Shown here: in pieces, positions 20,901 to 60,017 of the stretch
Position numbering within the stretch: the stretch's first letter is position 1
How the letters are laid out: every line of letters begins with the position of its first letter
Source of the DNA: a virus
Taxonomy: Duplodnaviria > Caudoviricetes
Virus record (IMG/VR): IMGVR_UViG_3300049489_000902
Coordinates: 1-62,272 of that record
Direction: 5' to 3' (one strand)
DNA length: 62,272 nucleotides
Made by a program: the position numbers and the translations under genes
The notes under the pieces: model-generated
Told to the model about the DNA's origin: nothing
The model's input: only the letters and a program-made list of their open reading frames with translations
The model's database searches: none

Positions 20901-21157
20901 GAATCAGTTATTGGTAATGTAATTAAACCAGCAGCAGCTAAAGCAGATGATTTAAGACTTCCATCAGGATTTAGAGAATTATTTAATCTTTGAGTAATAG
21001 TAGCTTGCGTTCCTGCTGCTCCTACTCCAATATTTGATTCAATATTAATTACAGCATCTTTTAATGCGTTTAATATATCTTCTCCTATTTCAGTTATATT
21101 ACCACTAACTGACGGAATCGTAAGATCATTATCTAAATCTGTAGGGAAGTTACTCAT
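14945..21157 (-). CDS. Very large fibre/tailspike-like virion protein with C-terminal parallel beta-helix region
   Basis: 2070 aa; N-terminal MSNFPTDLD; repeated NITINNCTF/NIEISKNTF/NVIIEGNT/IISNNTI beta-helix turns. Confidence 0.6.
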   Translation of the reverse strand: MSNFPTDLDNDLTIPSVSGNITEIGEDILNALKDAVINIESNIGVGAAGTQATITQRLNNSLNPDGSLKSSALAAAGLITLPITDSQISAVAAIKESKLDLNYPTNDLFNLISNLGISVTTLTNWLSLIGVKLDPHILGLSFKHNLDHIVVSTVEAELFKDKLGNYRSDDAYVGLKDLNDESVYHQKADGTGGAVGSVTTNDGSRSYPATHAHIASGIYVDSAGFANIPRTEQDVQAIFDYLDTTNSYSNLIKNLYSNGISKESRSSRLDKNIDGVGVSIVPTTQVHAYLLNSNATSPVDSITTGDDVIKFTPSLPANEFDAYFTNVRIGDILTIDYGSVKTSFLIKEKKYAVSGPNRSFYVRIEGKNLLDTEDGYASIDRSLVNSNKLGVLALSALNQNNNTSVLVGSPKGAQALGIGFDASQLDQDHYNLYLTIYNDGTLASEYKLLAIDVTGNAGATPGKYTLESVVENVNNAFRTNGFNYRFIAFSHKGEFGIMLADSYNNCGFSIISVYLDNAGLIDTVQTALNLPKNVIDVQNNQDALGLGPDGSNVASPPYQAYTSVELALHPTKIILPLTRNNFYVNGTERSDFEKDIDQAIDDYGDGYWKAKIVERTAAAGKIQTKYAISLDLRLSKLIEGKTVVVQPDESTPVLNQTQYLNYGRFIIESVDYTACVGLNPVTNIVVVDGVHNAPGISVVDTNLVPIDGYVRLYFCGDTAVFNDQNLSDQSAQTGFKRYHEIMINESGETFAQERARFSVSGNKTINGQTLRGTVNSAYFDILNVSNKLRGDLFGDLNKITLKVNSVSVSTGEINCVLCKYDGTNISNIGPVTIGKIGQVFRAYDNTNIEFIDFVFNAQVNVTNEYFDVQLFPTLSLDNEIMLLGSCQQNETGIVNIVDRRQFGTISEKDLTTSALDYISETDALLHGSGIISGFDLVDQVGLTNPNTNKIYLQGGKSIVNGKVVLRNSETLHIPPVKELYNGNYYSVNFAVCLNSNGDYNLVPLLDYNNNLFNSDVSLTSLNTYQTPDTDRQFTAFNNITSNSYILNASRFSDLIKDNKVTVLYVVNSLLGGSGVGTTYDLHIFDIRKYVNNVNNVVPVVYSGSKEQSNFRSLTAAINYAKLNKNNGNSNKIYLNGINESVTDIRLVFDKYTVIDGGNDSEITVNGSIKFGKNLLVKNTKFIINTEDRALFDSINGVNTVSDLTFENCDLTINSTSLASYTDITSARACFQSELNNIKFINCNITSNLGGYGNDGRKLIDINGGSGWVLDSCKFVLNTIYEGSNPAISDDGYVPVSGIRIGRGSSNITINNCTFEGNYLTGIFITGSNTHAIANINNINITKCIFNQSYGPKDGGISNAAIGDQGSSTTAYAVGDSTIVLRQGYLTGAGTSLDFENINIKECVFNYTGQYNYHFPFIKLLSYPLESGTNALQAANNFVRNIEISKNTFKSQTSIDGTFDPYTAIIFATRQQGTSTDLTKRVELENILISGNICRNQQQIILACPESVDGSSGTVVKMFGATNVIIEGNTAEVIGYLLTNSIANSRRGSNIVIRNNTASFIGSVNAEGKFARAWSAHDTLKYKYSSANAIIEGNNCNHIHAMVTGKNTSSLKINNNTLTSGVGFNLFTTYDDGLDNPDEIIYKSSLAAIYVTSSPTTGTTSNGITLSNDMACIISNNTICPNIIGADTYKYNYGIMCESSALIENNTIKEVVDSATISAGIVVKGKTYNINNNYIEKTANTDIKAYILGSDDVWSGFNGSSGTIKFNSFNDKSTIDTNPIEVYNEAIQGFNGSFTINNNKNQWGRIAIPLTQEFFQYGGDGFGAYHWTNTDSVWNVGKLDYAPVDVKSELGINITSMFDFDALHNSGDVYDRVRSASNTTMIRVRKSASSTNKFKCSWQIPFNNYINDYTNIKKIYAYVRAVNEDFGTLPTVSSTFTYSLYKRVNINTDTENLDSFDLVTGDGFGSAYSNNATDLATIAPTNPKGNLNYIVSDTISGLSVPASQPNSQGNLGKSVQVQFNSGGMYVSPQDVDLYTHDGNDYVLTVNADIKIPSANQTVFYLLSPIVVEYVW

Positions 21158-39535: not shown

Positions 39536-41037
39536 GTTATTGCCCTTGTTCTATTTTGTTCAAAAATACCATTATAATTAATAGTATCTGTTACTGAATT
39601 CTTTAAACTTCCATCAGAATTATACATTAACCATTGTATATTTGTTGGCTGTTTTTTACTATTTCTAATTATATTTACTTCTACTATCTTTTTTAATTTA
39701 GAACTAGATTCCCACCAAATTTCTTGGCTTGGAAATGGAATGCCTATAGTTTCTTTATATGCACCAGAAACAAATCCATTAGCAGGTCCTTCATCAACAA
39801 AATGAATTAATTGCCTTAATTTTTCATGATCTGTTTCATTAAGACCTGAACTTGTTCCAGAACCAGCCCCACCAGAAGGATCTCCAGTCTTATTCGATAT
39901 TATATTTACTATCTTATTTTGATTATATAATACATCTTCTTCTAATCTAGATACTTCAACACCGACTTCATTATATTGTATTGATGTAACTTTACTTATA
40001 TTTAATCCAGTATACTCTAATACATATTCTCTTACTTTTATTGTCTTAGCTGGAGATGTCCAAAAGATATAACTTGATATTTGATTACCTAAATAAGTTA
40101 CTTCTGTATATCCATCTTCAGCAATATCATGAACTAATGTGTCTAATGTTTCATGATTAGCTGTTCCAGAAGAACCACTAGATAAGCAATTAATAAAGCG
40201 TTTTCTTAAAAAATCCTCATCTAATAAATCTAATCTTTCTCTATATGGATAATAAATATTAGCATTTACTGCTTGCTCTATTGTATGAGGATAAGATATA
40301 TTATGATTTATTCCATCAAATTTTCTTATTTCAACATCAACATTATTAGGAGTTAAACTTGTTTTTGTTCGTCCAAATACAAAATATCCATCTGATGATT
40401 TTAATGAAGACCAAGATGAATCATATAATTCTACAAATGTAGCAATAATATTTCCTGCATCATATCCATCAAATACTGGAACACCTGTAATATCTGTTGA
40501 ATTTGCTATTTTTGTTACAGGTATACTGAAACTACTAACAGTTCCTAAATACAAAGAATACTTAATAGTATCTAATATAGTTTTAGCATCTGTAGTTTTA
40601 CCAGCAATATTAGATAAATTAGTATTAATATTGCTTGTAGTATCAGTTGGTCTTTTATAAGTAGGAATAGCAGAAGAATAACTATTACCTTTAATATTTG
40701 CTCTGTCAGTACGATTATAATTTAAATCATCTTCTAAAGTATATGGAGCATATTCTTGATAAGCAACATTGGATAAAGATAATGACGCATCAATTTGAAC
40801 TGTCGTAGGATTAATATAAGCAATAATTTTATAGATATTAGAATTTATGCTAATAAAATTATTTAAGCTAGCATCTGTAAATGAAGCAGTAACTAAAGTT
40901 CCTGAAACAGAACAAATGCCAGAATTAATTAATGAACCTAATTTTAAAGATTCATTAGAAGATATCATTGAATCATTATGATTTAATGATCCCGAAATAT
41001 CTAAATTTTGATTTAGGTCATGAATCCTAGTAGTCAC
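39532..41037 (-). CDS. Virion protein with duplicated C-terminal module
   Basis: HETLDTLVHDIAE...IFWTSPAKTIKV and HEKLRQLIHFVDE...IWWESSSKLKKI. Confidence 0.55.
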   Translation of the reverse strand: MTTRIHDLNQNLDISGSLNHNDSMISSNESLKLGSLINSGICSVSGTLVTASFTDASLNNFISINSNIYKIIAYINPTTVQIDASLSLSNVAYQEYAPYTLEDDLNYNRTDRANIKGNSYSSAIPTYKRPTDTTSNINTNLSNIAGKTTDAKTILDTIKYSLYLGTVSSFSIPVTKIANSTDITGVPVFDGYDAGNIIATFVELYDSSWSSLKSSDGYFVFGRTKTSLTPNNVDVEIRKFDGINHNISYPHTIEQAVNANIYYPYRERLDLLDEDFLRKRFINCLSSGSSGTANHETLDTLVHDIAEDGYTEVTYLGNQISSYIFWTSPAKTIKVREYVLEYTGLNISKVTSIQYNEVGVEVSRLEEDVLYNQNKIVNIISNKTGDPSGGAGSGTSSGLNETDHEKLRQLIHFVDEGPANGFVSGAYKETIGIPFPSQEIWWESSSKLKKIVEVNIIRNSKKQPTNIQWLMYNSDGSLKNSVTDTINYNGIFEQNRTRAIT

Positions 41038-41048
41038 ATTAGATATGC

Positions 41049-41642
41049 CTAATTATTTACTGCATAATTAGCTAGAATTTGACTTGAAGCGGCAGGAATA
41101 AAAGAAACAAATGTAACCATATCAAATCCAAAACCTGAACTAGCTACAACATAATCAATAGATTCGATTAGTCTTCTACCATTATGAAACACTTCAATTT
41201 TAAATTCATTACCATCTAATGTTTGATTTAAGAATTTATCAGGAGTATGAAATGTTCTATTTACTCCATCTTTAGGTCCAGTTAATACAATTCCTTGTTT
41301 TAAAGAATAATTAAGATTGCCTGAGCCACCTGCACTTAACCCAGTTACAATTCCAGCCGATTGTAAGAAAGCTTTTTGATCAGCATTAAATTGAATTAAA
41401 TCAATATCGCTACACATAACTACTATTTCATTACATAATATTTTATGTTTTAAAGTCCCTTTTAATAAGGAAGCTTTAATATCAGATTCCGCTACACCTG
41501 GAATTGCTAATAAATCTCTAGAGCAATGCCAACCAATAGGATAATTAAATATAGAAATAATTTTTTTCTCTATAGCCTTATTATAAACTATAAAGCAGCC
41601 AAATAATTTTTGACCATAAGCAAAGTCATTAAATCCAGACAT
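41049..41642 (-). CDS. Hypothetical virion protein
   Basis: GPKDGVNRTF...VFHNGRRL...DY motif. Confidence 0.6.
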   Translation of the reverse strand: MSGFNDFAYGQKLFGCFIVYNKAIEKKIISIFNYPIGWHCSRDLLAIPGVAESDIKASLLKGTLKHKILCNEIVVMCSDIDLIQFNADQKAFLQSAGIVTGLSAGGSGNLNYSLKQGIVLTGPKDGVNRTFHTPDKFLNQTLDGNEFKIEVFHNGRRLIESIDYVVASSGFGFDMVTFVSFIPAASSQILANYAVNN

Positions 41643-41680
41643 ATAGAATATATAACTTAATCACCTAGACAAGCATTTAT

Positions 41681-42370
41681 TTAATCATTTTTCTTAAAAC
41701 TATCACGAATTGTAATTGTTACAGATCTCTCAACTTCAGGATTTTCCGCTGTAGCTTTTACATCGCCAAATAATGTATGAATTAATTGATCATAGCTTTT
41801 TTCAGTTATATCTTTTTTAGATATAACTTTAGGTTTTAATCCAGGATTTTTCAAATCTTCATCTTTATCTAATAATATTTTTTCTATTTCTTTTATAGAT
41901 AAATCTTCTAATTTTTCTACAGTAAGACGATATCTTACAAATAATAATTCTTCTATATAATTTAAAGAACCAACTCCAGCTTGAGTTTCTGAAAAATCTC
42001 CATCATCAATACCAGATCTTAATCCTTTTTCCAATGAATTAACTAAGATTCTTAAATAAGAATTTTGAAACTCTTCTGAAGTATCATATTGTTCTTTTAA
42101 ATTAGAAGCTGCTTCTAATAGTTTTTTAAAAGCTTTTATCTTACCATTCATGCCTTCGGAAACAAATGGTTCCGATCTTGAATATGATTGTAAATTTCTT
42201 CTTGGATTAAAAAATGTTTCTTGATCTATTCTTCTGGTATCGAATGCTTGCTTAACTATAGGTTTATTTATATAATTAGCTCTTACTTTAATAGATGAAT
42301 TTCTGTCATCCAAAGTATTTTTAGATGAAGAAATTAACTCAAAGATATCAAGAGCGTCATTTATATTCAA
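41681..42370 (-). CDS. Hypothetical protein
   Basis: Intact 229-aa ORF coupled to neighbour. Confidence 0.6.
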   Translation of the reverse strand: MNINDALDIFELISSSKNTLDDRNSSIKVRANYINKPIVKQAFDTRRIDQETFFNPRRNLQSYSRSEPFVSEGMNGKIKAFKKLLEAASNLKEQYDTSEEFQNSYLRILVNSLEKGLRSGIDDGDFSETQAGVGSLNYIEELLFVRYRLTVEKLEDLSIKEIEKILLDKDEDLKNPGLKPKVISKKDITEKSYDQLIHTLFGDVKATAENPEVERSVTITIRDSFKKND

Positions 42371-42672
42371 TCAATACTCCACATTTCGACTCTAACAGCT
42401 TGTCCAGAAGCGTCCGCAGTCCTGAACCATATTGCCCCAACAACGCGATTAGAAAAGGAAACCATGGCATAAGGAGTATTATATTTTAATGTACCATGGA
42501 CTGTAGTTCCATCGAATGAATATTCAAATGTTCCAGCTGTACCTGCATGAGCTAATGAAAAACTCATATTTGTAGTTCTAAAAGGAACAGAGACATCAGG
42601 AGTAGCTGCAAATGCAGCAACAGAGACTGTAGCTAATTTATAGTAATTATAATTTGAAGCTGTATTTGCCAT
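42367..42672 (-). CDS. Small beta-rich virion protein
   Basis: FEYSFDGTTVHG...IWFR. Confidence 0.6.
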   Translation of the reverse strand: MANTASNYNYYKLATVSVAAFAATPDVSVPFRTTNMSFSLAHAGTAGTFEYSFDGTTVHGTLKYNTPYAMVSFSNRVVGAIWFRTADASGQAVRVEMWSID

Positions 42673-42681
42673 GTCATTATG

Positions 42682-42855
42682 CTAAATAATTACTCTTTTA
42701 ACCATTATTTCTTGATCCCAAAATTCATGAAATGACCAACTATATATTGGATGCTCATATTTTCTACGACCAATTCTTTGATAAGGAAGAGATCTTCTAA
42801 CTGGCACTATAGGATCTCTTTTTACACAGATATCTATTGTTTTATCATAAGTCAT
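42682..42855 (-). CDS. Array unit 18: MCP fragment (res ~72-85) + tag with read-through tail
   Basis: MTYDKTIDICVKRDPIVPVRRSLPYQRIGRRKYEHPIYSWSFHEFWDQEIMVKRVII; PVRRSLPYQRIGRR vs MCP PIRKNLDYHGIARR (7/14). Confidence 0.65.
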   Translation of the reverse strand: MTYDKTIDICVKRDPIVPVRRSLPYQRIGRRKYEHPIYSWSFHEFWDQEIMVKRVII

Positions 42856-42974
42856 TCAAACTTCCAGTTGTATATCTCATATCTAGAATATTTCCTCCAT
42901 TGTTTGACAGCACTTAAGCGAATAGTAGGATTTGAAAATAATTCAAACATAGGAAAAACATCAGGTTTATTCAT
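42852..42974 (-). CDS. Array unit 17: MCP fragment (res ~130-146) + tag
   Basis: MNKPDVFPMFELFSNPTIRLSAVKQWRKYSRYEIYNWKFE; vs MCP PTFEIYANPKVRIAEVK (8/17). Confidence 0.75.
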   Translation of the reverse strand: MNKPDVFPMFELFSNPTIRLSAVKQWRKYSRYEIYNWKFE

Positions 42975-43107
42975 AAAATGTCCAGTCATATATTTTATGA
43001 TATCCATCAATTATAGAAAATCTTCTAGTTCTTACATCAGAAATCCTAATACTAGGACATGAAGAAATTTCAAATATAGGAACTGTTACTCTGGTGCCTT
43101 TGATCAT
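42967..43107 (-). CDS. Array unit 16: MCP fragment (res ~124-154) + tag
   Basis: MIKGTRVTVPIFEISSCPSIRISDVRTRRFSIIDGYHKIYDWTFYE; vs MCP GDRVTIPTFEIYANPKVRIAEVKKRRFNVID (17/31). Confidence 0.85.
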   Translation of the reverse strand: MIKGTRVTVPIFEISSCPSIRISDVRTRRFSIIDGYHKIYDWTFYE

Positions 43108-43108
43108 T

Positions 43109-43252
43109 TTAAATTATACTTATGGTTAAATTGTCCCAAAATTCATGAAATTCAAAATCATATATTTGATACTTTCTATATGAAACGAATCCTTTCATAG
43201 CGTATCTTGTGAATAATTGCATAGTCTGAGGGCTAAATGTTATATCATCCAT
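43109..43252 (-). CDS. Array unit 15: unassigned insert (possibly gp23-type capsid motif) + tag with read-through tail
   Basis: MDDITFSPQTMQLFTRYAMKGFVSYRKYQIYDFEFHEFWDNLTISII. Confidence 0.65.
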   Translation of the reverse strand: MDDITFSPQTMQLFTRYAMKGFVSYRKYQIYDFEFHEFWDNLTISII

Positions 43253-43346
43253 AAAACTTCCAGTCATATATTTTATAAAATATGTAGCTGTAAATAACAT
43301 TAGGGCTCCAATCATAATATATTATACCGCTTTCTCCTCTAATCAT
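43245..43346 (-). CDS. Array unit 14: insert (possible tail-tube motif) + tag
   Basis: MIRGESGIIYYDWSPNVIYSYIFYKIYDWKFYG. Confidence 0.6.
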   Translation of the reverse strand: MIRGESGIIYYDWSPNVIYSYIFYKIYDWKFYG

Positions 43347-43521
43347 GAAATTTCCAATCATATATTTCATATATAGGATTTGTATTAAATACACTCCTAG
43401 CAATTCCTCTATAATCTAAATTACGTCTAATAGGAGCTGCCATTGCCATAGCAAGCTTAGCTTTACCTTCTTTAGTATGTAAATTACTTAATAACTTGCT
43501 AATAATATCATCTTTATTCAT
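43339..43521 (-). CDS. Array unit 13: MCP fragment (res ~48-84) + tag
   Basis: MNKDDIISKLLSNLHTKEGKAKLAMAMAAPIRRNLDYRGIARSVFNTNPIYEIYDWKFHD; 19/27 identical to MCP TQDGKLALAQAMANPIRKNLDYHGIAR. Confidence 0.9.
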   Translation of the reverse strand: MNKDDIISKLLSNLHTKEGKAKLAMAMAAPIRRNLDYRGIARSVFNTNPIYEIYDWKFHD

Positions 43522-43624
43522 AAAATCTCCAATCAAATATTTTATAATTACAATCAATTATAGTCATTACAGGAAATATTACAAATTCTCTTATATCAGC
43601 ATTAATAATATAGTCTTTATTCAT
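43514..43624 (-). CDS. Array unit 12: insert + tag
   Basis: MNKDYIINADIREFVIFPVMTIIDCNYKIFDWRFYE; only a faint resemblance to MCP GEFLGVMPVV. Confidence 0.6.
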   Translation of the reverse strand: MNKDYIINADIREFVIFPVMTIIDCNYKIFDWRFYE

Positions 43625-43751
43625 AAAATCGCCAATCGAATAAATAATGATAATAATCAAGAGTGGTTCGTAAAGGGCTTGTCATTAATTTAGCAAGCCT
43701 CTTTCTGCCTTTTTTAGTTTTTAATAATTTGTTTACTTTACCTTTATTCAT
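43617..43751 (-). CDS. Array unit 11: MCP fragment (res ~52-79) + tag
   Basis: MNKGKVNKLLKTKKGRKRLAKLMTSPLRTTLDYYHYLFDWRFYE; vs MCP VNRALLTQDGKLALAQAMANPIRKNLDY (13/28 ungapped). Confidence 0.8.
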   Translation of the reverse strand: MNKGKVNKLLKTKKGRKRLAKLMTSPLRTTLDYYHYLFDWRFYE

Positions 43752-43854
43752 AGAAACACCAGTCATATAAAATATAGCCTATACTTATCGTATATTTAAT
43801 ATAATTTATAGGATAAGTAATTTCATTTATTGTTATTAATGCATTTGTTACCAT
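43744..43854 (-). CDS. Array unit 10: tail-sheath C-terminal fragment + tag
   Basis: MVTNALITINEITYPINYIKYTISIGYILYDWCFYE; TYPINYIKYTISIG vs sheath TYGINFIYIKINVG. Confidence 0.65.
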   Translation of the reverse strand: MVTNALITINEITYPINYIKYTISIGYILYDWCFYE

Positions 43855-43855
43855 A

Positions 43856-44035
43856 TTATTCGCTAAATTCCCAATCATAGATAGAATATCCAAACATATT
43901 ATTCATTATATTAATAATATACGCATCTTCAGCGTCCATTATTTCTTGCTTAGCTTTATTTAGTACTTCACTGTATATAGTGTAATCATGACTGTAATCT
44001 AATTCTGAAAAATTAGGATAAATTATCTTATTCAT
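43856..44035 (-). CDS. Array unit 9: MCP fragment (res ~155-175) + tag
   Basis: MNKIIYPNFSELDYSHDYTIYSEVLNKAKQEIMDAEDAYIINIMNNMFGYSIYDWEFSE; KAKQEIMDAEDA vs MCP KARQEIMAQEDA (9/12). Confidence 0.8.
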   Translation of the reverse strand: MNKIIYPNFSELDYSHDYTIYSEVLNKAKQEIMDAEDAYIINIMNNMFGYSIYDWEFSE

Positions 44036-44129
44036 AAAACCTAAAATCGTACAAACTCATACAAGAATAACAAAAATCTATGAAGCTTTCAATATCAGAT
44101 TCTAATATCGTAAATATTGGTTCATTCAT
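44028..44129 (-). CDS. Array unit 8: unassigned insert + tag
   Basis: MNEPIFTILESDIESFIDFCYSCMSLYDFRFYE. Confidence 0.6.
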   Translation of the reverse strand: MNEPIFTILESDIESFIDFCYSCMSLYDFRFYE

Positions 44130-44271
44130 AAAACTTCCAGTCATATATTTGATTAGAACCTGCCCAAGATATTATATCCGTATAATCATTCACATTCATG
44201 AATATTCTAGGACATTGTAACGTATGGCTTTCTATTTCTTTTTGTATAGATCTAAGTTGTTTTTTATTCAT
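44122..44271 (-). CDS. Array unit 7: MCP fragment (res ~196-229) + tag
   Basis: MNKKQLRSIQKEIESHTLQCPRIFMNVNDYTDIISWAGSNQIYDWKFYE; ungapped vs MCP KRNLVDLKAQVDRWDLVTDKFFMNIVEFTDMLKW (9/34 plus conservative changes). Confidence 0.75.
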   Translation of the reverse strand: MNKKQLRSIQKEIESHTLQCPRIFMNVNDYTDIISWAGSNQIYDWKFYE

Positions 44272-44425
44272 GAAATTTCCAATCATATATTCCAGCAATT
44301 AGATAATTAAGCATAGCAAATACTGCATTATCTTCTTGTGCCATTATTTCTTGACGCTCTTTCCATTCTTTAATATCTAATATAGGATATGGTTTACGTT
44401 GAAAATTTTTCATATAATCATTCAT
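44264..44425 (-). CDS. Array unit 6: MCP fragment (res ~161-176) + tag
   Basis: MNDYMKNFQRKPYPILDIKEWKERQEIMAQEDNAVFAMLNYLIAGIYDWKFHE; RQEIMAQEDNAVFA vs MCP RQEIMAQEDANVFA (12/14). Confidence 0.88.
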   Translation of the reverse strand: MNDYMKNFQRKPYPILDIKEWKERQEIMAQEDNAVFAMLNYLIAGIYDWKFHE

Positions 44426-44540
44426 AGAAACTCCAGTCGTATATTTCATTAATGCCAAGCTCATCATTATAAAACATATGTACTAATTTATTAATTATTG
44501 GATCTTTGTTATGTATTAAATACAAATCTTCTTCATCCAT
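44418..44540 (-). CDS. Array unit 5: unassigned insert + tag
   Basis: MDEEDLYLIHNKDPIINKLVHMFYNDELGINEIYDWSFYE. Confidence 0.65.
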   Translation of the reverse strand: MDEEDLYLIHNKDPIINKLVHMFYNDELGINEIYDWSFYE

Positions 44541-44648
44541 AGAATTTCCAATCGTATACAGTAATATAGTTATAAAAAGCAAATTTAAAAATGATTGAGT
44601 AGAAATTAAATTATTTTGATACATTAAATAAATTTCTTCATCAGTCAT
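44533..44648 (-). pseudogene. Array unit 4: frameshifted cassette (tag in -1 frame; the 0 frame reads into unit 5)
   Basis: ATG-to-tag-stop span is 116 nt; 0 frame MTDEEIYLMYQNNLISTQSFL..., -1 frame ...KFAFYNYITVYDWKFYG*. Confidence 0.55.
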
Positions 44649-44772
44649 AAAATTTCCAATCATTAATATAATTAACTATGTCCACATAATAAAAATGTGT
44701 AAATAAAGTTTTAATCTTAGTATCAGCTGCGTATCTGTAATCATACATAGAATGTATATCAATATTATTCAT
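44641..44772 (-). CDS. Array unit 3: unassigned insert + tag
   Basis: MNNIDIHSMYDYRYAADTKIKTLFTHFYYVDIVNYINDWKFYD. Confidence 0.65.
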   Translation of the reverse strand: MNNIDIHSMYDYRYAADTKIKTLFTHFYYVDIVNYINDWKFYD

Positions 44773-44848
44773 AAAATCTCCAAATATAAATATTATTTGG
44801 TAATTCAAGATATTCTGGAAGATAAGTAGGTTGACAAAATTCAATCAT
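44765..44848 (-). CDS. Array unit 2: unassigned insert + tag
   Basis: MIEFCQPTYLPEYLELPNNIYIWRFYE. Confidence 0.6.
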   Translation of the reverse strand: MIEFCQPTYLPEYLELPNNIYIWRFYE

Positions 44849-45041
44849 TAAATTTCCAATCATATATTTCATGTATACTAAATTTACCAATACCTCTAGC
44901 ATTTACTATTCCTATGCCAATCGTCTCATAACATGTCCAACCAATTAGCTTATTCTTTGGTTCATCTGCATCAAGAACAGTTATTTCTTGTTTTACTGGA
45001 ATTTTACCAACAAATTCAATATCACCACTTTTATAAATCAT
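44841..45041 (-). CDS. Array unit 1: MCP C-terminal fragment (res ~282-323) + tag
   Basis: EFVGKIPVKQEITVLDADEPKNKLIGWTCYETIGIGIVNARG vs MCP EFLGVMPVVQDIEVLPADEPKLLSIGWVVSEIIGIGIVNPRG (27/42), then IYDWKFND. Confidence 0.9.
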   Translation of the reverse strand: MIYKSGDIEFVGKIPVKQEITVLDADEPKNKLIGWTCYETIGIGIVNARGIGKFSIHEIYDWKFND

Positions 45042-45095
45042 AGATCCTATATATCAATCACCTATAAATATCTCATTTTACCCTCAGCTTTGCCG

Positions 45096-45124
45096 TTGAC
45101 TATTCCATCCATGCTAAGTATCCT
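45096..45124 (+). promoter_or_regulatory. Sigma70-like promoter for the HNH pair
   Basis: TTGACT-17 nt-TATCCT, ~50 nt upstream of ATG 45176. Confidence 0.45.
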
Positions 45125-45175
45125 TACTGCATCAGCGCTCAAAATGTGCCCATTCTTATTAAGGAAAAATATATT

Positions 45176-45889
45176 ATGGCTTCTCTTGATCTTACAAACA
45201 AAATTTTTGGTAAACTTACTGCACTACACACTGTCCCGAATAAACCTGGCGACCGCCATATTAAATGGAAGTGCAAATGTGAATGCGGTAATTTTCACCA
45301 TGTTACAACTAATCAACTTACTTCAGGAAGATCAACTCACTGCGGTTGCGTTAAACCTGAATCAAAAAGAAAAATTGACATAACTAATAGAAAATTTGGC
45401 AAATTAACCGCCATTGAACCAACTTACCATAATGAAAAACTAAAGTGGAAATGTATTTGTGAATGTGGCAAAGAATGCATTGTTATTACAGATAAATTAA
45501 TGTCTGGTCACACTAAATCTTGTGGTTGTAATAAGATAACTGTACATTACGATAATCATTATAGAAGAAATGCTTCTAATGGAAGTGGAGTTCTAACTGA
45601 ACTTAAATCTTATTTTCAACAAAGATATTCTGATGGAAATCTAACCTTTGAACAATTTGAAGAATTATCAAAAAATAATTGCCATTATTGTGGTGCTGGT
45701 CCATCAAATACAATTAAATTAAAGTATAAAGATTATACGGCATTTATTAAATATAATGGTTTAGATAGAAAAGACAATAATAAAAAGCACGATTCAGACA
45801 ATGTAGTGACTTGTTGTAAGAACTGTAATTATTCAAAAAGAAATAGTTCATATGCAGAATTTTCGGAAAGGATTGGTAAAGGATTATGA
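45176..45889 (+). CDS. HNH homing-endonuclease-like protein with two N-terminal FGKLT..WKCxCECG DNA-binding repeats
   Basis: Start moved to ATG 45176 (AAGGA upstream); CHYCG...NGLDRKDN...NVVTCCKNCNYSK. Confidence 0.8.
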   Translation: MASLDLTNKIFGKLTALHTVPNKPGDRHIKWKCKCECGNFHHVTTNQLTSGRSTHCGCVKPESKRKIDITNRKFGKLTAIEPTYHNEKLKWKCICECGKECIVITDKLMSGHTKSCGCNKITVHYDNHYRRNASNGSGVLTELKSYFQQRYSDGNLTFEQFEELSKNNCHYCGAGPSNTIKLKYKDYTAFIKYNGLDRKDNNKKHDSDNVVTCCKNCNYSKRNSSYAEFSERIGKGL

Positions 45890-46497
45890 GTTTAGTAAAT
45901 AAAAAATTTGGAAGATTAACTGTTTTAAGAGAGGTTAGAAAAGGAAAAACTCTTAGAAAAATATACTGGGATTGCTTATGTGATTGCGGTAAAGAAACTA
46001 ATGTCTATGGCGTTTATTTAGTTAATGGAGATACTAAATCTTGTGGGTGTTTAAAAACTGAAAAGAAACCAGGTTTAAAGAAACCAAAGTCAAGAGAACA
46101 TTATCAAAGAGGTTCTGCTAAAAAAGCATATTCAACCTCATATACAAATGAAGGAGATACCATTTCATTTGAAGATTTTTATAGGTTAGCACAAATGGAT
46201 TGTTATTATTGTGGACAAAAACCAATTAACGCAATTAATGCGTATAATGATAAGAGATACCTTCCAGAAGCAAAAGAAAATGGAAAATTTATCTATAATG
46301 GACTAGATAGAGTTGATAATAGTCTGCCTCACACATTAGAAAATTGTGTTACTTGTTGTAAACATTGTAATTATGCAAAAAGAGATATGTCTCAGCAAAA
46401 ATTTTTAGAATATCGCCAACAAAGATTTAATCATTTCCAAAAAAGTAAAGAATTTTTTGAAGGAGAAATTAAATTAAAAGAAATTTTAAACCGTTAA
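45886..46497 (+). CDS. HNH homing-endonuclease-like protein (paralog of upstream gene)
   Basis: FGRLTV..WDCLCDCG..KSCGC; CYYCG...NGLDRVDN...NCVTCCKHCNYAK. Confidence 0.8.
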   Translation: MSLVNKKFGRLTVLREVRKGKTLRKIYWDCLCDCGKETNVYGVYLVNGDTKSCGCLKTEKKPGLKKPKSREHYQRGSAKKAYSTSYTNEGDTISFEDFYRLAQMDCYYCGQKPINAINAYNDKRYLPEAKENGKFIYNGLDRVDNSLPHTLENCVTCCKHCNYAKRDMSQQKFLEYRQQRFNHFQKSKEFFEGEIKLKEILNR

Positions 46498-46519
46498 AGA
46501 TTATAAATATAATAAAAAC

Positions 46520-46554
46520 AAAAACGCTCAGGATTTTAGCCCTGAGCGTTTTTT
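46520..46554. terminator. Bidirectional intrinsic terminator between convergent HNH and MCP genes
   Basis: AAAAACGCTCAGG-N8-CCTGAGCGTTTTT. Confidence 0.85.
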
Positions 46555-46573
46555 ATGTCTTTAATTCAGCGAA

Positions 46574-47578
46574 TTATCCGACTGAAACTGATTTACGACC
46601 AGCAGCGCAACCACGAGGATTGACGATACCAATTCCGATAATCTCAGAAACAACCCAACCAATTGAAAGCAATTTGGGTTCGTCAGCAGGAAGAACTTCA
46701 ATGTCTTGGACCACAGGCATAACACCTAGGAACTCGCCAGCCGCTGAACCGTATACGGTACCTTGTGGAACAATCTTACTTACAAGAACATCAGCACCCC
46801 AGATATGGGCATAAAGACCAGTTTGGAGAACTTCGCGCATGGTAACGGGATCGAGATCTCCACCACCTACGCCTTGTCCACCACCTGAACCCCACTTTAA
46901 CATATCGGTAAATTCAACAATGTTCATGAAGAATTTATCAGTTACGAGGTCCCAACGATCAACTTGGGCTTTAAGATCAACTAAGTTCCTCTTTAATAGA
47001 CCGGTGTCAGCTAAGTCGATAAGAGTATTTTCAACTGAAGCAGCGGAATCAATGGCAGCGAAAACGTTTGCGTCTTCTTGAGCCATGATTTCTTGACGTG
47101 CTTTTTGAACGGCACGGTCAATAACGTTAAATCTGCGTTTTTTGACTTCGGCAATACGAACCTTGGGATTCGCGTAAATTTCAAAGGTAGGAATCGTAAC
47201 GCGGTCGCCGAATACACGGCTTTCTGGACCTGAACCATTTGAAGAAATTACAACGGCAGCAACATCAATATCTCTTTCGTATGAGATCTGTTGACCCTGT
47301 TGAACATTCTCAACAACTAAGGCACGACGAGCAATTCCATGGTAATCTAAATTCTTACGAATTGGATTCGCCATAGCTTGAGCAAGAGCTAATTTACCGT
47401 CTTGTGTTAAGAGGGCACGGTTAACCATGTCATCTTTTTCGGCATCACTGGCTTCACGAGTAAGACCAGCGTTTGAAGGCATATTATCATCAAGAATTGA
47501 AGCATATTTCGCGATAGTGGCGAAAGCTTCTTTGACAGAAGAGGCGTTAAGTTCGCCTTGAGCATTAAACATAGACAT
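46574..47578 (-). CDS. Major capsid protein (HK97-fold)
   Basis: 334 aa; follows protease-scaffold and decoration genes; visibly higher GC/biased codons; AGGAG RBS; strong terminator; spine-helix-like QKARQEIMAQEDANVF and C-terminal EIIGIGIVNPRG. Confidence 0.85.
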   Translation of the reverse strand: MSMFNAQGELNASSVKEAFATIAKYASILDDNMPSNAGLTREASDAEKDDMVNRALLTQDGKLALAQAMANPIRKNLDYHGIARRALVVENVQQGQQISYERDIDVAAVVISSNGSGPESRVFGDRVTIPTFEIYANPKVRIAEVKKRRFNVIDRAVQKARQEIMAQEDANVFAAIDSAASVENTLIDLADTGLLKRNLVDLKAQVDRWDLVTDKFFMNIVEFTDMLKWGSGGGQGVGGGDLDPVTMREVLQTGLYAHIWGADVLVSKIVPQGTVYGSAAGEFLGVMPVVQDIEVLPADEPKLLSIGWVVSEIIGIGIVNPRGCAAGRKSVSVG

Positions 47579-56447: not shown

Positions 56448-59400
56448 TTAGAATAATCTTTGTTTCTTTCCAAGGCTATTAGAAAGAACTCTAACTATAT
56501 CATTATCTTCAACTGGTGCATGAGTTGATTCGCCTTCTCCTCTGGTTCCAACCTGTGGAATGAATCCAGCAGTTTTAACAGTGAGTGTAGGAGCTTGAGC
56601 AACAATATTCTTAAAGGACTCTAATCCTTCAGCATTGAATTTCAAGATCTTATCAACTTGAGCAGCTTTGGCTTCACGAACATTTAAGCATAATCCACGA
56701 TCTGCCATTGCTTCAACTAATTCCCATGCCTCAGCTAATTTAACTTTATGGGCATCCATTTCGGCTTCCTGAGAGGCTTTCGCGTGCTCTTTAACTAGTT
56801 CAGCTGCAAACTCTGAACCACCCTCTGCATTGGCATAATATTTCTTGTAATATGCAACCGCAGCAGCATCAACGCCTTCAGCAACTAATGAATCTAATTC
56901 TGAAGCAGTAATTGATCCAGTAGCAATTAAGTTACGAATTGCAAGAGCTTCTTTGCGAACGTTTGGATTTGAGGTAGCAACATCAACTACTTTAGTATGA
57001 ATTGCTTCTAAATCTTCTACTTCGTCAAGATCATCACTAACAGTAATATCAAGATCTAATTTAGCAGATCCTTGTGGATGAGCCTCATTAAGGATAGGAT
57101 TAAACTCACTGGCTAATTTAGCTCTTAAAGTAGCTCTATCAGAAGCTTGCGCTAAATCAAGAGTTAATTTATTTGTAGTAGGATTAAAATCTCCCTTGAT
57201 ATCTTGTTCATCACAAGCTTCGCAATCATCAGCAGCAGCTCTGTCAAGGTCAGCTAATTCAGATTCAATTGCATCTTGTTCTGCTTCAATTTCACTTAAA
57301 GCAACTTCATCATCTTTAATTTCGTCAGTAACAACCTCGTCATTAAGCAATTCAGCAATTAAAGCCTCAGCTTCTTCATCACTAACATCTTCTGACTCAG
57401 TAGTTTCAGCTAATTCACTTTCCATTTGAGCACGCTTCATAATCATGTCTGAACTACGAGCGTATTTAACGAAAGCATTTAGTAATTGGAAACCATCAGC
57501 AATTGCAGTTTTTGCATCAGCAATTGAATCTTCAGTTACAGAAGAAATTACAGAAGCATTCTCGGTAGTTACAGCATTATTTTCATAAACTGAAACGATT
57601 TGAGCAAGTTCTTCTGAATGATCATTCAATGAAGCAAGTGATTCTTTCATGGCATCAACTAAACCTGAATTTAATTGTTTGCGCATAACTTGTAATGAAG
57701 CAGTTGCAGTTACTGGAGCAGTAGGCTCAGCAGCAATTTCTCCCATTTCAGATTGTTCACCAGTTAAAGCCCTTACAGCTTCAACTAAATCGCTTGAAAG
57801 ATTTTGAATTTGACTTGAGATATCTTCGATTTTTGCCGTAGGGTCTTCTACATCAGCAGGAGCAACAACAGGGGAGACAGGTGCGGCGGGCTCAGCAGTT
57901 GTCATTTCAGGAGCAGCTTGACCTAATTTTGGTAAGCCAAGAATCATATTTACGGCATCTTCTGGTTTGCTTTTAACAACAGAACCATCAGGTAAAACAG
58001 TTCCTTCTTTAGCAGTAGCTGCTTCAGCAGGAGTTAATCTACGCATTTTACCAGTTTGTGAAATCGCAACTAAAACATTAGGAACAATAACGTCAGCTGG
58101 TAATATGGTATCAGCTTTATTAGTATCTAAACCTTTTAATACTTTATCAGTTTCCTCGTCAAGTTTTTTACCTAAATTAGGATCTACTGGCTTTGCAGTT
58201 GAAGGAGTAACTACCATTTCAGGAAGTTCAGTTACTTGGGCACGAACTTCTTGTAATAGAATTTTACCAAATTCAGCAGTGGCAATTTTATCAACAGAAA
58301 GACTTGAGTCAACATCAAGTAAATCAGCAACAGAAGCTTCACGGACTAAAGTCTCGCCAACAAATACTTTCCAGGCACTATCAGTTACTTTAGCTGATTT
58401 AACGAATTTGCCAGTTAGTTTCTCTCCACGAGAAAGCTTTTGTTTAATTTCTTTGTCGCCAGGATAAAGGTCTTCAACTTTTCCAACCTCAGGGAAAGGT
58501 TTCTTTCCTTGCATGTGTTTATCACCTTTACGAGCTTCTTCATTACCTGGATCAACTTTATATTGTTGTTTACCTTTGCCAACAGGGGCTTCGGTTCCAG
58601 CATGATAAGCTCTTGATTCTAAAGCAGCTTTAGCAGCTGATAAAGCATTAAGGCGTTGTGATGCACGAGCAAGCAATTTCTTTTTCTCTAAATCGCCTGG
58701 AGCTAAACCAGTTGAACCACCAAGATCATCGACTTTCATTTGACGATCTTCGTCTCGTAATTTAGCATTCATTGGGTCGGCTGGATATTGAGTCCCACCT
58801 TTGACGGGATCAACAGTTCCTTGAAAATACGCTGTCTTTTTACTCATTGTTTCCTCTTCAGTAATTTTTGATATTTTTGTTGTTAAATCTGCAAGAGTGG
58901 CTTGCATCATATTAATTTTCTCAGACAATTCAGCAGTTATTTCTTTTGCACTTGAAATTTCAGTTTCCTGAGCATATCTTTGACCAGGAGTGGTCAATTG
59001 CTCAGTATCCCCTGTAAATGCATCAGAACTATCTACGTCAGAAGAATCCATCTCTTCTTGAAGTTTTTCAATTCTTTCAATTGCTTTCTCTAAATCAGCT
59101 TTTAATTCATCAAGAGAATTTGTGTTTAATGAAATATTTTCACTTAAACCCTCTTTATTGTTAAAAGATAAATTAGCAGAATATTCATTAGCAATTTTAT
59201 TTAATTTATTTTGCTTTTGTGCTACATAAGAATTTAATGCATTTACAGAAGCAACTATATTTTTAATCTTAGCTTTACGATCAGCACCATTAACTACAAT
59301 AGATAACTCAATAGGACTTAAGTCTAAATTGATTTCACCATAACAAGTTTTATGACGCATGTGTTCGCAGAAATCTTTTTCTGCTCTAGCTACTCTTCCA

Positions 59401-60017
59401 CAATCTGTACAAACTGCTTTTCCAACTGCTGTACCCATTGATACATCATTAGAATAACCAGTTGAAACTTTTCTTGCCAAGTCAGGATAATTAATTTTAT
59501 CTAATGCACAAAGAGCAATTACTCTTTTTAATTTACGATCATAGTAAGTATCAACAATAAATCCTCTTACAAAGTCAACTGAACTTGATTTATGATCAAT
59601 ACAAAGTGGCTTTCCAACCCACTTCTTATGTGCAATTAATAGCTCTTTTTCAGGGAAAATGTCAGCGTTGGCATTTTTGTATGGCTTAATTGAAGGGTCA
59701 TTAGATTTCCACTTCATTGATTCGCCAGTAACTTCCCAACCTACTTGAACTTCTTCTCCCTTAGCAGTTAATTTAACTGTACCATCATCATTTAATGATG
59801 AAGCTTCAGCAGCGTGCATCATAATAGCTGAGAAATAAAGAAAATCATCAGCTTTAGGAGCTACTTTTCTTTTTTCGGCATCAGCCTTTGATTCTTTTTT
59901 AAATTCAGTAATGGTTTCGGCGAATTTTGCTAATATAGCAGGGTCTACTTGAGATATTGATGTTTCAGTTGATTCAATGCGTTCAATCTGATAAGCTTCG
60001 CCTATTTTAATAAACAT
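56448..60017 (-). CDS. Prohead protease fused to long acidic scaffold
   Basis: NANADIFP..EL, GKPLCIDH, VSMG, CTDCG..CEH, ELSIVVNGAD protease motifs; acidic coiled-coil remainder with an internal ~75-aa duplication (AYFQGT.../AYHAGT...). Confidence 0.75.
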   Translation of the reverse strand: MFIKIGEAYQIERIESTETSISQVDPAILAKFAETITEFKKESKADAEKRKVAPKADDFLYFSAIMMHAAEASSLNDDGTVKLTAKGEEVQVGWEVTGESMKWKSNDPSIKPYKNANADIFPEKELLIAHKKWVGKPLCIDHKSSSVDFVRGFIVDTYYDRKLKRVIALCALDKINYPDLARKVSTGYSNDVSMGTAVGKAVCTDCGRVARAEKDFCEHMRHKTCYGEINLDLSPIELSIVVNGADRKAKIKNIVASVNALNSYVAQKQNKLNKIANEYSANLSFNNKEGLSENISLNTNSLDELKADLEKAIERIEKLQEEMDSSDVDSSDAFTGDTEQLTTPGQRYAQETEISSAKEITAELSEKINMMQATLADLTTKISKITEEETMSKKTAYFQGTVDPVKGGTQYPADPMNAKLRDEDRQMKVDDLGGSTGLAPGDLEKKKLLARASQRLNALSAAKAALESRAYHAGTEAPVGKGKQQYKVDPGNEEARKGDKHMQGKKPFPEVGKVEDLYPGDKEIKQKLSRGEKLTGKFVKSAKVTDSAWKVFVGETLVREASVADLLDVDSSLSVDKIATAEFGKILLQEVRAQVTELPEMVVTPSTAKPVDPNLGKKLDEETDKVLKGLDTNKADTILPADVIVPNVLVAISQTGKMRRLTPAEAATAKEGTVLPDGSVVKSKPEDAVNMILGLPKLGQAAPEMTTAEPAAPVSPVVAPADVEDPTAKIEDISSQIQNLSSDLVEAVRALTGEQSEMGEIAAEPTAPVTATASLQVMRKQLNSGLVDAMKESLASLNDHSEELAQIVSVYENNAVTTENASVISSVTEDSIADAKTAIADGFQLLNAFVKYARSSDMIMKRAQMESELAETTESEDVSDEEAEALIAELLNDEVVTDEIKDDEVALSEIEAEQDAIESELADLDRAAADDCEACDEQDIKGDFNPTTNKLTLDLAQASDRATLRAKLASEFNPILNEAHPQGSAKLDLDITVSDDLDEVEDLEAIHTKVVDVATSNPNVRKEALAIRNLIATGSITASELDSLVAEGVDAAAVAYYKKYYANAEGGSEFAAELVKEHAKASQEAEMDAHKVKLAEAWELVEAMADRGLCLNVREAKAAQVDKILKFNAEGLESFKNIVAQAPTLTVKTAGFIPQVGTRGEGESTHAPVEDNDIVRVLSNSLGKKQRLF

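Follow-up and report, generated by a model that had tools for sequence, protein, structure and literature searches.

The stretch of DNA analysed here, referred to below as the window, is a 62,272-nt phage contig with a G+C content of 30.6%, and it is the only piece of this genome that is represented. Our subject is an array of 18 mini-open reading frames (mini-ORFs) of 27-66 amino acids (aa), which are tiled along the minus strand from 45041 down to 42682 and share copies of a repeat of ~30 nt. A preliminary description of this DNA had counted 18 copies of the repeat and had credited it with three roles, namely those of (i) a peptide tag, (ii) a translational coupler, and (iii) a possible recombination site; all 18 copies were recovered in place, on the minus strand. 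The array and the gene to which its contents relate, that of the major capsid protein (MCP), are located as follows:

42682..45041, minus strand: entire array of 18 tiled mini-ORFs; 644 body codons, none of them a stop
46574..47578, minus strand: intact gene of the MCP (334 aa, HK97 fold); the fragments stem from its family

Each unit of the array combines a body with a tag read from its repeat copy (A-type below denotes the N-arm type of body):

44841..45041, minus strand: U1, 66 aa; MCP aa 277-327 (P-domain strands) and tag IYDWKFND; profile E 7e-18
44765..44848, minus strand: U2, 27 aa; body without detected origin and tag IYIWRFYE
44641..44772, minus strand: U3, 43 aa; body without detected origin and tag INDWKFYD
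44533..44648, minus strand: U4; body paralogous to the U5 N-terminus and tag VYDWKFYG
44418..44540, minus strand: U5, 40 aa; decayed junction, then an A-type start (NKDPIINKLV), and tag IYDWSFYE
44264..44425, minus strand: U6, 53 aa; MCP aa 146-179 (spine helix) and tag IYDWKFHE; profile E 1e-7
44122..44271, minus strand: U7, 49 aa; MCP aa 198-233 (A-domain helix-strand-helix) and tag IYDWKFYE; profile E 5e-8
44028..44129, minus strand: U8, 33 aa; body without detected origin and tag LYDFRFYE (W>F)
43856..44035, minus strand: U9, 59 aa; MCP aa 153-179 (paralogue of U6) and tag IYDWEFSE; profile E 2e-4
43744..43854, minus strand: U10, 36 aa; body without detected origin and tag LYDWCFYE
43617..43751, minus strand: U11, 44 aa; MCP aa 54-82 (N-arm helices) and tag LFDWRFYE; profile E 7e-5
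43514..43624, minus strand: U12, 36 aa; A-type start (MNKDYIIN) and tag IFDWRFYE; missing from strain X3
43339..43521, minus strand: U13, 60 aa; MCP aa 50-94 (N-arm and first hairpin strand) and tag IYDWKFHD; profile E 2e-13
43245..43346, minus strand: U14, 33 aa; internal decayed repeat (YYDWSPN, 43298-43316) and tag IYDWKFYG
43109..43252, minus strand: U15, 47 aa; embedded tag IYDFEFHEF without a stop, then WDNLTISII (compare YDRDIDVAAVVI in the MCP)
42967..43107, minus strand: U16, 46 aa; MCP aa 125-156 (P-domain strands) and tag IYDWTFYE; profile E 4e-10
42852..42974, minus strand: U17, 40 aa; MCP aa 130-151 (paralogue of U16) and shortened tag IYNWKFE; profile E 6e-6
42682..42855, minus strand: U18, 57 aa; MCP aa 69-113 without gaps, the tag IYSWSFHEF replacing the hairpin tip; profile E 5e-3

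Compared by tblastn with the window after masking of the array, eight of the 18 units matched the MCP gene and nothing else (E<=0.02), namely U1 (MCP 275-323, 59% identity, E 5e-14), U13 (48-84, 57% identity, E 2e-10), U16 (124-154, 55% identity, E 4e-9), U11 (52-80, E 2e-5), U6 (146-177, E 5e-5), U7 (196-229, E 2e-4), U17 (130-149, E 7e-4), and U9 (150-172, E 0.02). A profile built from 81 MCPs recognized nine of the 18 units at E<0.01, adding U18 (positions 69-113). These slices are 45-59% identical to the MCP. Moreover, the MCP-matching units hit the MCPs of all 80 relatives (80 IMG/VR MCP loci retained from 202 relatives, located on contigs of up to 480 kb, with MCPs precomputed as PF25209, HK97-fold, G-type) at about an equal level, and no unit is therefore a recent import from a sampled phage. 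Relative to the MCP, the slices are non-collinear and redundant: U11 and U13 are of the N-arm (A) type, to which U5 and U12 are added by mutual similarity; U16 and U17 are of a strand-block (B) type; U6 and U9 are of a spine-helix (C) type; U7 (A-domain) and U1 (C-terminal) are single slices; and U18 forms a hairpin type with U15, whose assignment rests on its likeness to U18. Paralogous units are only 42-50% identical over short aligned stretches. Each unit covers 20-51 of the 336 MCP profile positions and none comprises a full-length HK97 fold (N-arm, E-loop, P-domain, A-domain), so that the predicted products are slices, not capsid proteins.

To place the slices on the fold, we used an AlphaFold2 model of the MCP (diverse 74-row alignment; pLDDT 86.4, pTM 0.81), the best fold matches of which are HK97 capsids. 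In this model, MCP 48-94 comprises the N-arm helices (H45-80) and the first hairpin strand; MCP 125-156, the strands E126-141; MCP 146-180, the spine helix (H152-180); MCP 196-233, the elements H196-207, E213-218, and H220-230; and MCP 277-327, long strands (E285-329). Each MCP slice is thus shown by the model to span one or two whole predicted secondary-structure elements. The identified classes together cover aa 48-113, 123-186, 196-233, and 277-327 of 334, which might suggest a capsid gene in pieces, whose slices, zipped together by their tails, would associate non-covalently to form another MCP-like subunit for a vertex or a special capsomer; coupled translation, discussed below, would yield equal amounts. 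We regard this as highly improbable, however, since the classes are redundant (3-5 of A-type, 2 of B-type, 2 of C-type) and overlapping (B 125-156 versus C 146-179), the paralogues have diverged to the low identities given above, units come and go between strains, and the mosaic proteins of relatives, which are described below, end after the spine helix. A role of the units as gene-conversion donor cassettes for the MCP gene was rejected, because their amino acid identity of 45-59% is too low and the MCP gene contains no copy of the repeat. It may be added that the MCPs of the clade to which the window belongs have an N-terminal extension of ~43 aa (aa 1-43), which is absent from the 6WKK chain of phage G, and that the N-arm-type units begin just past it, at aa 48-50.

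The repeat that bounds these bodies has the consensus ..AT AAA ATA TAT GAT TGG AAA TTT TAT GAA TAA A, with the endings ATGAATAA, ATGAATGA, ATGGATGA, and ATGATTGA present. Read in frame, it encodes (Y)x(I/L/V)(Y/F)D(W/F)xF(Y/H/N/S)(E/D/G)-stop, and its conservation reaches upstream to an aromatic residue at -3 (YxIYDW). The variants singled out in the preliminary description are all there, namely W>F by TGG>TTT in U8 and U15, Y>F in U11 and U12, K, R, S, E, C, or T at position x, and the synonymous pairs GAT/GAC, TAT/TAC, and TTT/TTC. That the repeat furnishes each unit with a tag and a stop is true of most units. The exceptions are U15 and U18, in which TTT stands in place of the TAA stop and which read on (..HEFWDNLTISII, ..HEFWDQEIMVKRVII) into more MCP-like sequence, and U4, in which body and tag are in different frames, shifted at a T5 run, and the body continues into U5 (ORF 44418-44663). 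Further, decayed but in-frame repeat copies or junctions are found inside U5, U9 (an extra copy at 43901), and U14.

At the 17 internal junctions, the ATG of one unit and the stop of its predecessor overlap by 8 nt in 14 cases and by 4 nt (ATGA) in one, and are set apart by a 1-nt gap in two; the start of U16, for example, lies 1 nt past the stop of U15. A GGAR element, contributed by TGG-ARN, ends 5 nt ahead of the next ATG and resembles a Shine-Dalgarno (SD) site; in U8, where the tryptophan is replaced by phenylalanine, the x codon AGG restores a purine-rich SD-like site. The combination claimed earlier, an 8-nt overlap with GGAR 5 nt before the ATG, thus holds at 14 of the 17 junctions and breaks down at U9, whose repeat contains no ATG. 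U1, which has no repeat ahead of it, has its own AGGA-type start. At 17 of 17 junctions, stop and start overlap or abut, an arrangement that, together with the SD-like GGAR, is consistent with termination-reinitiation, and SD-like sites (GGAG, GAGG, or AGGA) occur at 18 of the 41 genes of the phage. Promoter-like sites are not enriched (38, versus 39.3 +/- 7.0 in shuffles), and none of six terminator-like sites falls within 42682-45041. Taking together the stop/SD/ATG geometry, the commonness of SD-like sites, the lack of promoter enrichment, and the lack of a terminator in the array, we consider termination followed by restart to be the natural reading of how the array would be translated. 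Ribosomes would terminate at each stop and begin anew 8 nt upstream, so that all units would be made in roughly equal amounts.

Several other readings of the repeat were considered and rejected. A CRISPR array does not fit, since the period between repeats is irregular (76-246 nt), both the repeat and the 'spacers' are coding, and Rfam gave no match in the array (the only Rfam signals were sub-threshold matches on a terminator hairpin outside it). A sigma-70 promoter is at odds with the lack of enrichment of promoter-like sites. A programmed +1 frameshift that would join units at TTT-T fails because the slippery context is missing in three TTC-TAT junctions and varies silently.

The array behaves as protein-coding DNA. 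Its 644 body codons contain no stop, whereas 2000 shuffles averaged 60.3 stops and never had fewer than 40, and the other five frames of the bodies contain 33-110 stops. In the tag, changes from the consensus at codon positions 1, 2, and 3 of the I, Y, D, W, and F codons number 7, 6, and 18 (chi-square p=0.014), so that variation is not random by codon position; T>C changes affect 14 of 54 silent third positions versus 0 of 90 replacement T positions (p=3e-7), although both p-values overstate independence, because the repeat copies are related by duplication. The replacements that do occur are conservative (I/V/L, Y/F, W/F, D/N/S). The alignment of silent against replacement changes that the preliminary description had called for hence speaks for its peptide tag, with variation concentrated at silent sites. 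The final two residues of the tail (Y/H, E) say little about the peptide, because the overlapping ATG-AAT fixes them. A search for the tag elsewhere, likewise proposed earlier, drew a blank: the full motif, as a loose protein-level pattern, appears in no other long frame of the 62-kb contig, and a weight matrix of the repeat, run over both strands of the other 58,272 nt, found 0 further matches. The idea that the tail was copied from elsewhere in the contig was rejected on this ground.

The units that lack a stop offer a clue to where the tail came from. In U18, the tail IYSWSFHEF sits at the tip of the MCP hairpin that follows the N-arm (~aa 92-101) and is succeeded by WDQEIMVKRVII, compared with the YDRDIDVAAVVI of MCPs. 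U15 shares the extended repeat of U18 (80% identical over 40 nt), and the end of U15, read on into the start of U16, keeps following the MCP. The tail of U13 lies in the same MCP region, just past the first hairpin strand. For the remaining slice classes, what comes after the break bears no resemblance to the continuation of the MCP. Because the tails of U18, U15, and U13 stand at the hairpin tip and the other classes have no such continuity, the tail probably began as a hairpin-tip segment (~aa 92-101) of an MCP paralogue. It could have gained a stop (TTT>TAA) beside a fortuitous ATG and then have spread to other slices via recombination. As a separate observation, aa 90-99 of the MCP encoded in the window (47281-47310) read ENVQQGQQIS, where all 80 relatives have DPLPQGA(M/I)PT, almost invariant; this is the only strongly deviant stretch of the MCP and the same hairpin-tip site as the tails of U13, U15, and U18.

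Variation between strains was followed in assembled contigs from three other public runs, which establish that a form exists and say nothing of its frequency. The contigs of one strain, X3, bear on the relation of the array to the genes and hairpin that separate it from the MCP gene in the window:

45146..46497, plus strand: tandem pair of HNH endonuclease genes, separating MCP gene and array (phrog_374, E 2e-30 and 1e-17)
46520..46553: strong bidirectional terminator-like hairpin of 13-14 bp, directly after the MCP and HNH2 genes

The preliminary description had suggested a search for rearranged cassettes, and X3 supplied two joints. The first joins 43510 to 43614 and skips 103 nt, exactly one repeat-to-repeat period, holding U12; its 17 ambiguous bases all lie inside the repeat. 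The second joins 44289 to 44574 (a 284-nt skip) with 17 other letters between, and U5 and the body of U6 are gone. Contigs of X3 also pass into unlike sequence at 42696-42921 and 44449-44952. The array is thus polymorphic unit by unit. The three roles originally attributed to the repeat are therefore supported by sequence evidence, that of the tag by silent-site variation, that of the coupler by the junction geometry only, and that of the recombination site by the loss of one unit in X3. A further joint in X3 connects 45058 to 46560 with 48 letters between, which places the array directly behind the MCP gene with no HNH genes. Because X3 has the array without these genes, the array is independent of the endonucleases, and the notion that the repeat is a target or product of the neighboring HNH genes was rejected; the 1.5-kb HNH block missing from X3 is itself a mobile insertion polymorphism. 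In the U4 run at 44560-44580, the window has T5 and X3 has T7; neither places the body in frame with the tag, as T6 would, and this difference could be slippage-prone phase variation or plain decay.

Loss and gain of units precisely at repeats recall the most far-reaching proposal of the preliminary description, in which the repeat is an integron-like capture site, so that any fragment dropped between two copies gains a ribosome-binding site (RBS), a start, a tag, and a stop. The repeat does supply all four signals, and nine of the 18 bodies have no identified source. Yet all nine identifiable bodies come from one protein family, that of the MCP, and none from other genes of the window, many units are mutual paralogues, and the embedding of the tag in continuous MCP-like sequence in U15 and U18 points to evolution in place instead of capture. 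Nor was a dedicated recombinase found among the 31 large ORFs scanned, or a recurrent attC-like inverted repeat at the junctions. The claim that any fragment can be dropped in is not supported by these findings, and an integron-like platform has become quite improbable.

The surroundings of the array are those of virion genes. In a PHROGs scan of the 31 largest ORFs, the MCP gene matched major head protein phrog_2522 (E 5e-69), and the same-strand neighbors of the array are head and tail genes, including matches to tail sheath and tail fibre, so that the array is located within a same-strand structural gene block, to which a further gene belongs:

56448-60017, minus strand: prohead-protease-domain protein, 1189-aa ORF with the domain at aa 115-223

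The window also holds very large structural ORFs without a PHROG match, of 2070 aa (14945-21157, minus strand) and 1533 aa (2313-6914, minus strand), and 0 tRNAs. The MCP is 74-77% identical to those of the 80 relatives and shares 47% identity with gp27 of Bacillus phage G (498 kb; gp27 solved as PDB 6WKK). Because its MCP relatives lie on contigs of up to 480 kb and because of this identity to phage G gp27, the contig is, as judged by its MCP, a piece of a phage-G-like jumbo phage. The gene order in the relatives is p446, p209, MCP, a variable gap, p229, and p197; the gap ranges from ~130 to ~5,300 nt, and HNH genes often adjoin the MCP gene. It is this variable gap 3' of the MCP gene that the array occupies. 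Directly after the array lies the gene of a 101-aa beta-rich protein (42367-42672, minus strand), homologues of which (34-36% identity) were seen in 5 of the 80 loci of relatives, at varying distance from the MCP gene, and also in the contig L263.

A locus directly after the capsid gene in the head/tail block (in X3, 48 nt + 17 nt behind the MCP gene), with a short terminal peptide common to otherwise different small proteins, invites comparison with the capsid-targeting sequence of T4 and with encapsulin peptides. On such a reading, the tail would be a head-cargo address that loads mini-proteins into the procapsid, to be ejected with the DNA. This would give no reason for the cargo being capsid slices, and the tail is on no other ORF of the 62-kb contig (the portion of the genome that the contig covers); we consider such an address improbable.

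How far the array or its contents extend beyond the window was examined in several collections. A megablast of 41000-47000 against 50,697 phage records gave no match. The DNA pattern of the repeat matched one locus in IMG/VR, 19 loci in metagenome contigs, and at least 120 places in GTDB, with one match per locus among the matches listed; these are chance matches, because they are single per locus and those inspected are neither ORF ends nor arrays. A loose tag motif revealed no array in the 80 MCP loci of relatives, and an MCP profile run against 31,122 six-frame pieces of these loci gave 0 fragment matches outside the MCP gene; the gaps 3' of the MCP genes of relatives contain other genes and no tagged units.

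Slices of the same protein are nevertheless widespread in another form. An exhaustive phmmer search with the MCP against 1.84 billion representatives returned full MCPs together with many single ORFs of 130-230 aa composed of MCP slices, which we call mosaics. When a profile of 16 mosaics was run against 5.8 billion proteins, the top 44 rows were all mosaics, with true MCPs ranking lower; these best 44 rows are of 156-228 aa, fall in clusters of 1-5 members, and come from contigs of up to 506 kb. Any name given to them at source is 'hypothetical protein'. Pfam gave no match for nine mosaics and the MCP, and the ESM Atlas, searched with mosaic P0152, gave no score of 0.85 or more. The mosaics (proteins P0023-P0196, with P0035, P0056, and P0152 as examples) follow a common plan of MEHPIIIxSxGK, N-arm and hairpin, (F/Y)KHDxIVIxSRGK, strand block, an optional motif repeat, and spine helix, and occasionally include A-domain or C-terminal strands. 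The MEHP motif starts 43 of 50 mosaics and none of 81 MCPs. Four mosaics end in a hydrophobic stretch that, by eye, resembles a membrane helix.

The units of the array resemble the mosaics more than they resemble the MCP. Seven of them (U6, U9, U11, U13, U16, U17, and U18) match a hidden Markov model (HMM) of 50 mosaic sequences (E 5e-16 to 3e-4), six of the seven above their MCP score: the mosaic and MCP HMMs give U11 29.2 and 11.8 bits, U13 49.0 and 39.8, U16 47.5 and 29.2, U17 25.8 and 15.4, U18 10.4 and 5.8, U9 13.4 and 10.5, and U6 19.9 and 20.8. U1 and U7 match the MCP HMM only. Derived residues are also common to units and mosaics (VRRSLPYQ, PLRTTLDY). A 268-kb IMG/VR contig, L222, has three tandem genes (5575-6627) located 210 kb from its MCP gene, namely a 64-aa gene (motif and MCP 74-94), a 60-aa gene (motif and MCP 201-232, the same slice as U7), and a 214-aa gene that is a mosaic; the slice limits agree with those of U7 and U18. 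The tandem-gene stretch of L222 also carries an HNH-like gene. Among five whole records searched, L222 is the one that has a mosaic, and none was found in phage G or in complete phages of 448 and 481 kb. An MEHP motif HMM run against the array in three frames gave no match of 8 bits or more, and conversely the tail of the array was not found in the mosaics. Mosaics and units are alike in descending from a G-type HK97 MCP and in using the same set of slices, with tandem small genes in L222; they differ in that the slices of mosaics are mostly fused in one ORF after the N-terminal or internal MEHP motif, whereas the units are separate ORFs with a C-terminal YxIYDWKFYE. By the evidence of their shared slices, the array and the mosaics are different packagings of the same slices.

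Strain differences provide a measure of the constraint on the bodies. Of 327 differences, the 40 best supported were evaluated, 20 of them within the array. In the array these amount to 7 silent and 13 replacement changes, compared with a neutral silent share of 0.174 (binomial p=0.046), and in the flanking p197, p229, and MCP genes, to 13 silent and 5 replacement changes (Fisher p=0.028). Because the array shows 7:13 against 13:5 in the flank, with a silent share above neutral, the unit bodies appear to evolve fast under weak but detectable constraint.

These figures bear on a reading in which the array is the wreckage of an additional capsid gene. A paralogue adjacent to the MCP gene would have been broken up by repeat-mediated rearrangement, its peptides would be functionless, and its open, coupled frames would do no more than spare the late genes further downstream (p101, p229, and others) the effects of polarity. 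Much about the array has the look of a ruin: its slices are scrambled, redundant, and more diverged from the MCP (45-59%) than MCPs are mutually (74-77%); replacements outnumber silent changes between strains (13:7 among those best supported); U4 is frameshifted at a T run that varies between strains; junctions have decayed and units have fused; and the whole is placed inside a same-strand structural gene block. Polarity, however, leaves the amino acid conservation of I-Y-D-W-x-F unexplained (the 14/54 against 0/90 of T>C changes), the same slice limits are kept in the independent, widespread mosaic family and in L222, the silent share of body changes exceeds the neutral expectation, and a terminator and two opposite-strand genes already part the MCP gene from the array in the window. 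On balance we judge a wreck to be unlikely.

We propose instead that the array is a co-translated, recombining set of MCP-derived capsid mimics with a common handle, an explanation in which our confidence and our doubt are about equal. Homologous recombination between repeats would duplicate, delete, and shuffle units with the frame logic intact, and whatever units resulted from such duplication, deletion, or exchange would still be expressed and tagged through the repeat. The units might imitate exposed elements of unassembled MCP, acting as microProtein-like competitors or decoys, and the target of this mimicry could be the MCP itself or a protein that recognizes it; the tail would serve as a common handle for docking or strand pairing. 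Several results weigh against this explanation. Nine of the 18 bodies (U2, U3, U4, U5, U8, U10, U12, U14, and U15) are not significant against the MCP profile. The array is in no other phage record searched, and U1 and U13, when searched against 5.8 billion proteins, found only themselves and no small homologues. The tail has no recognizable homology to MEHPIIIxSxGK, the linker motif of the mosaic family. The bodies are under weak purifying selection, for which a crude ratio calculated from the 20 array differences (of the 40 best supported) gives ~0.4, and the non-independence of the repeat copies, already noted, tempers the case for selection on the tag.

A broader proposal, which we find possible but are inclined to doubt, is that phage-G-like jumbo phages carry a modular, recombining library of capsid mimics that is used in conflict. 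Such a library might, for example, disrupt capsid assembly in relatives or satellites that infect the same cell, or blind those proteins of the host or of satellites by which the MCP is recognized. With the repeat at their boundaries, units could be rearranged, duplicated, and traded without ever losing expression, and the library would correspond, at the protein level, to a cassette array evolving in an arms race.

If the units are functional capsid mimics, they would represent a previously undescribed viral use of a virus's own structural gene, in which the gene is cut into elements, each is given a common handle, and all are made as a stoichiometric, reshufflable set; this would bear on the assembly and sabotage of giant capsids, on the evasion of capsid-sensing defences, and on competition between phages. 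The link to the widespread, unannotated mosaic family (at least 44 clusters) turns a single oddity into a class. The 30-nt repeat, for its part, appears to be a compact natural combination of stop, RBS, start, and peptide tag, and is potentially useful for polycistronic expression. Neither capsid-slice mini-genes nor the mosaic family were found described in a full-text literature search of limited depth.

Among known systems, integron arrays are also made of tandem short units with a recurring boundary site that carries expression signals, and with unit-wise gain and loss. The array shares with them its tandem units at a recurring expression-signal site and their gain and loss one by one. It fails, however, three defining integron features: (i) integrons have IntI and attI, whereas the PHROGs scan of the 31 largest ORFs shows no integrase or recombinase here, and no attI was found; (ii) integrons have attC inverted repeats, whereas the array has 12 sporadic AT-rich inverted pairs, none of which recurs at the 18 junctions; and (iii) integron cassettes are unrelated acquired genes, whereas nine of the 18 bodies here are from one protein family. 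Integrons are, moreover, expressed from a common Pc promoter, whereas the array would rely on translational restart and not on such a promoter alone.

MicroProteins, and capsid-derived dominant-negative restriction factors such as mouse Fv1, are small and each corresponds to a part of a larger protein that self-assembles, whose interactions they are expected to disturb or titrate. The proposed units would be analogous to them in deriving from part of a larger assembling protein. MicroProteins and Fv1 are eukaryotic single genes whose action is experimentally shown; here there are 18 units with a shared tail and an inferred function.

Closer to the present locus are the PeSLs of T4-type phages, which are described as short conserved intergenic repeats of sigma-70-like promoter and terminator that flank small accessory ORFs in a hyperplastic region (PMC2839356). 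Recombination between PeSLs leads, according to the same account, to insertions, deletions, and replacements between close relatives (PMC2839356). The array is PeSL-like in that repeats bound small ORFs and units are inserted or deleted between relatives, as in the 103-nt and 284-nt skips of X3. It is unlike PeSLs in that its repeat is coding and translational and lies inside ORFs, whereas PeSLs are transcription signals, and in that PeSL cassettes carry unrelated ORFans, whereas the array carries slices of one protein.

Finally, the Gol region of T4 gp23, which is sensed by the Lit protease, offers a precedent for a short capsid stretch as a signal in phage-host conflict, as set out in PMC3014915. 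The Gol stretch belongs to the complete capsid protein and sets off a host defence, and no separate phage genes for slices are involved; in the array, by comparison, the capsid slices stand as genes of their own.

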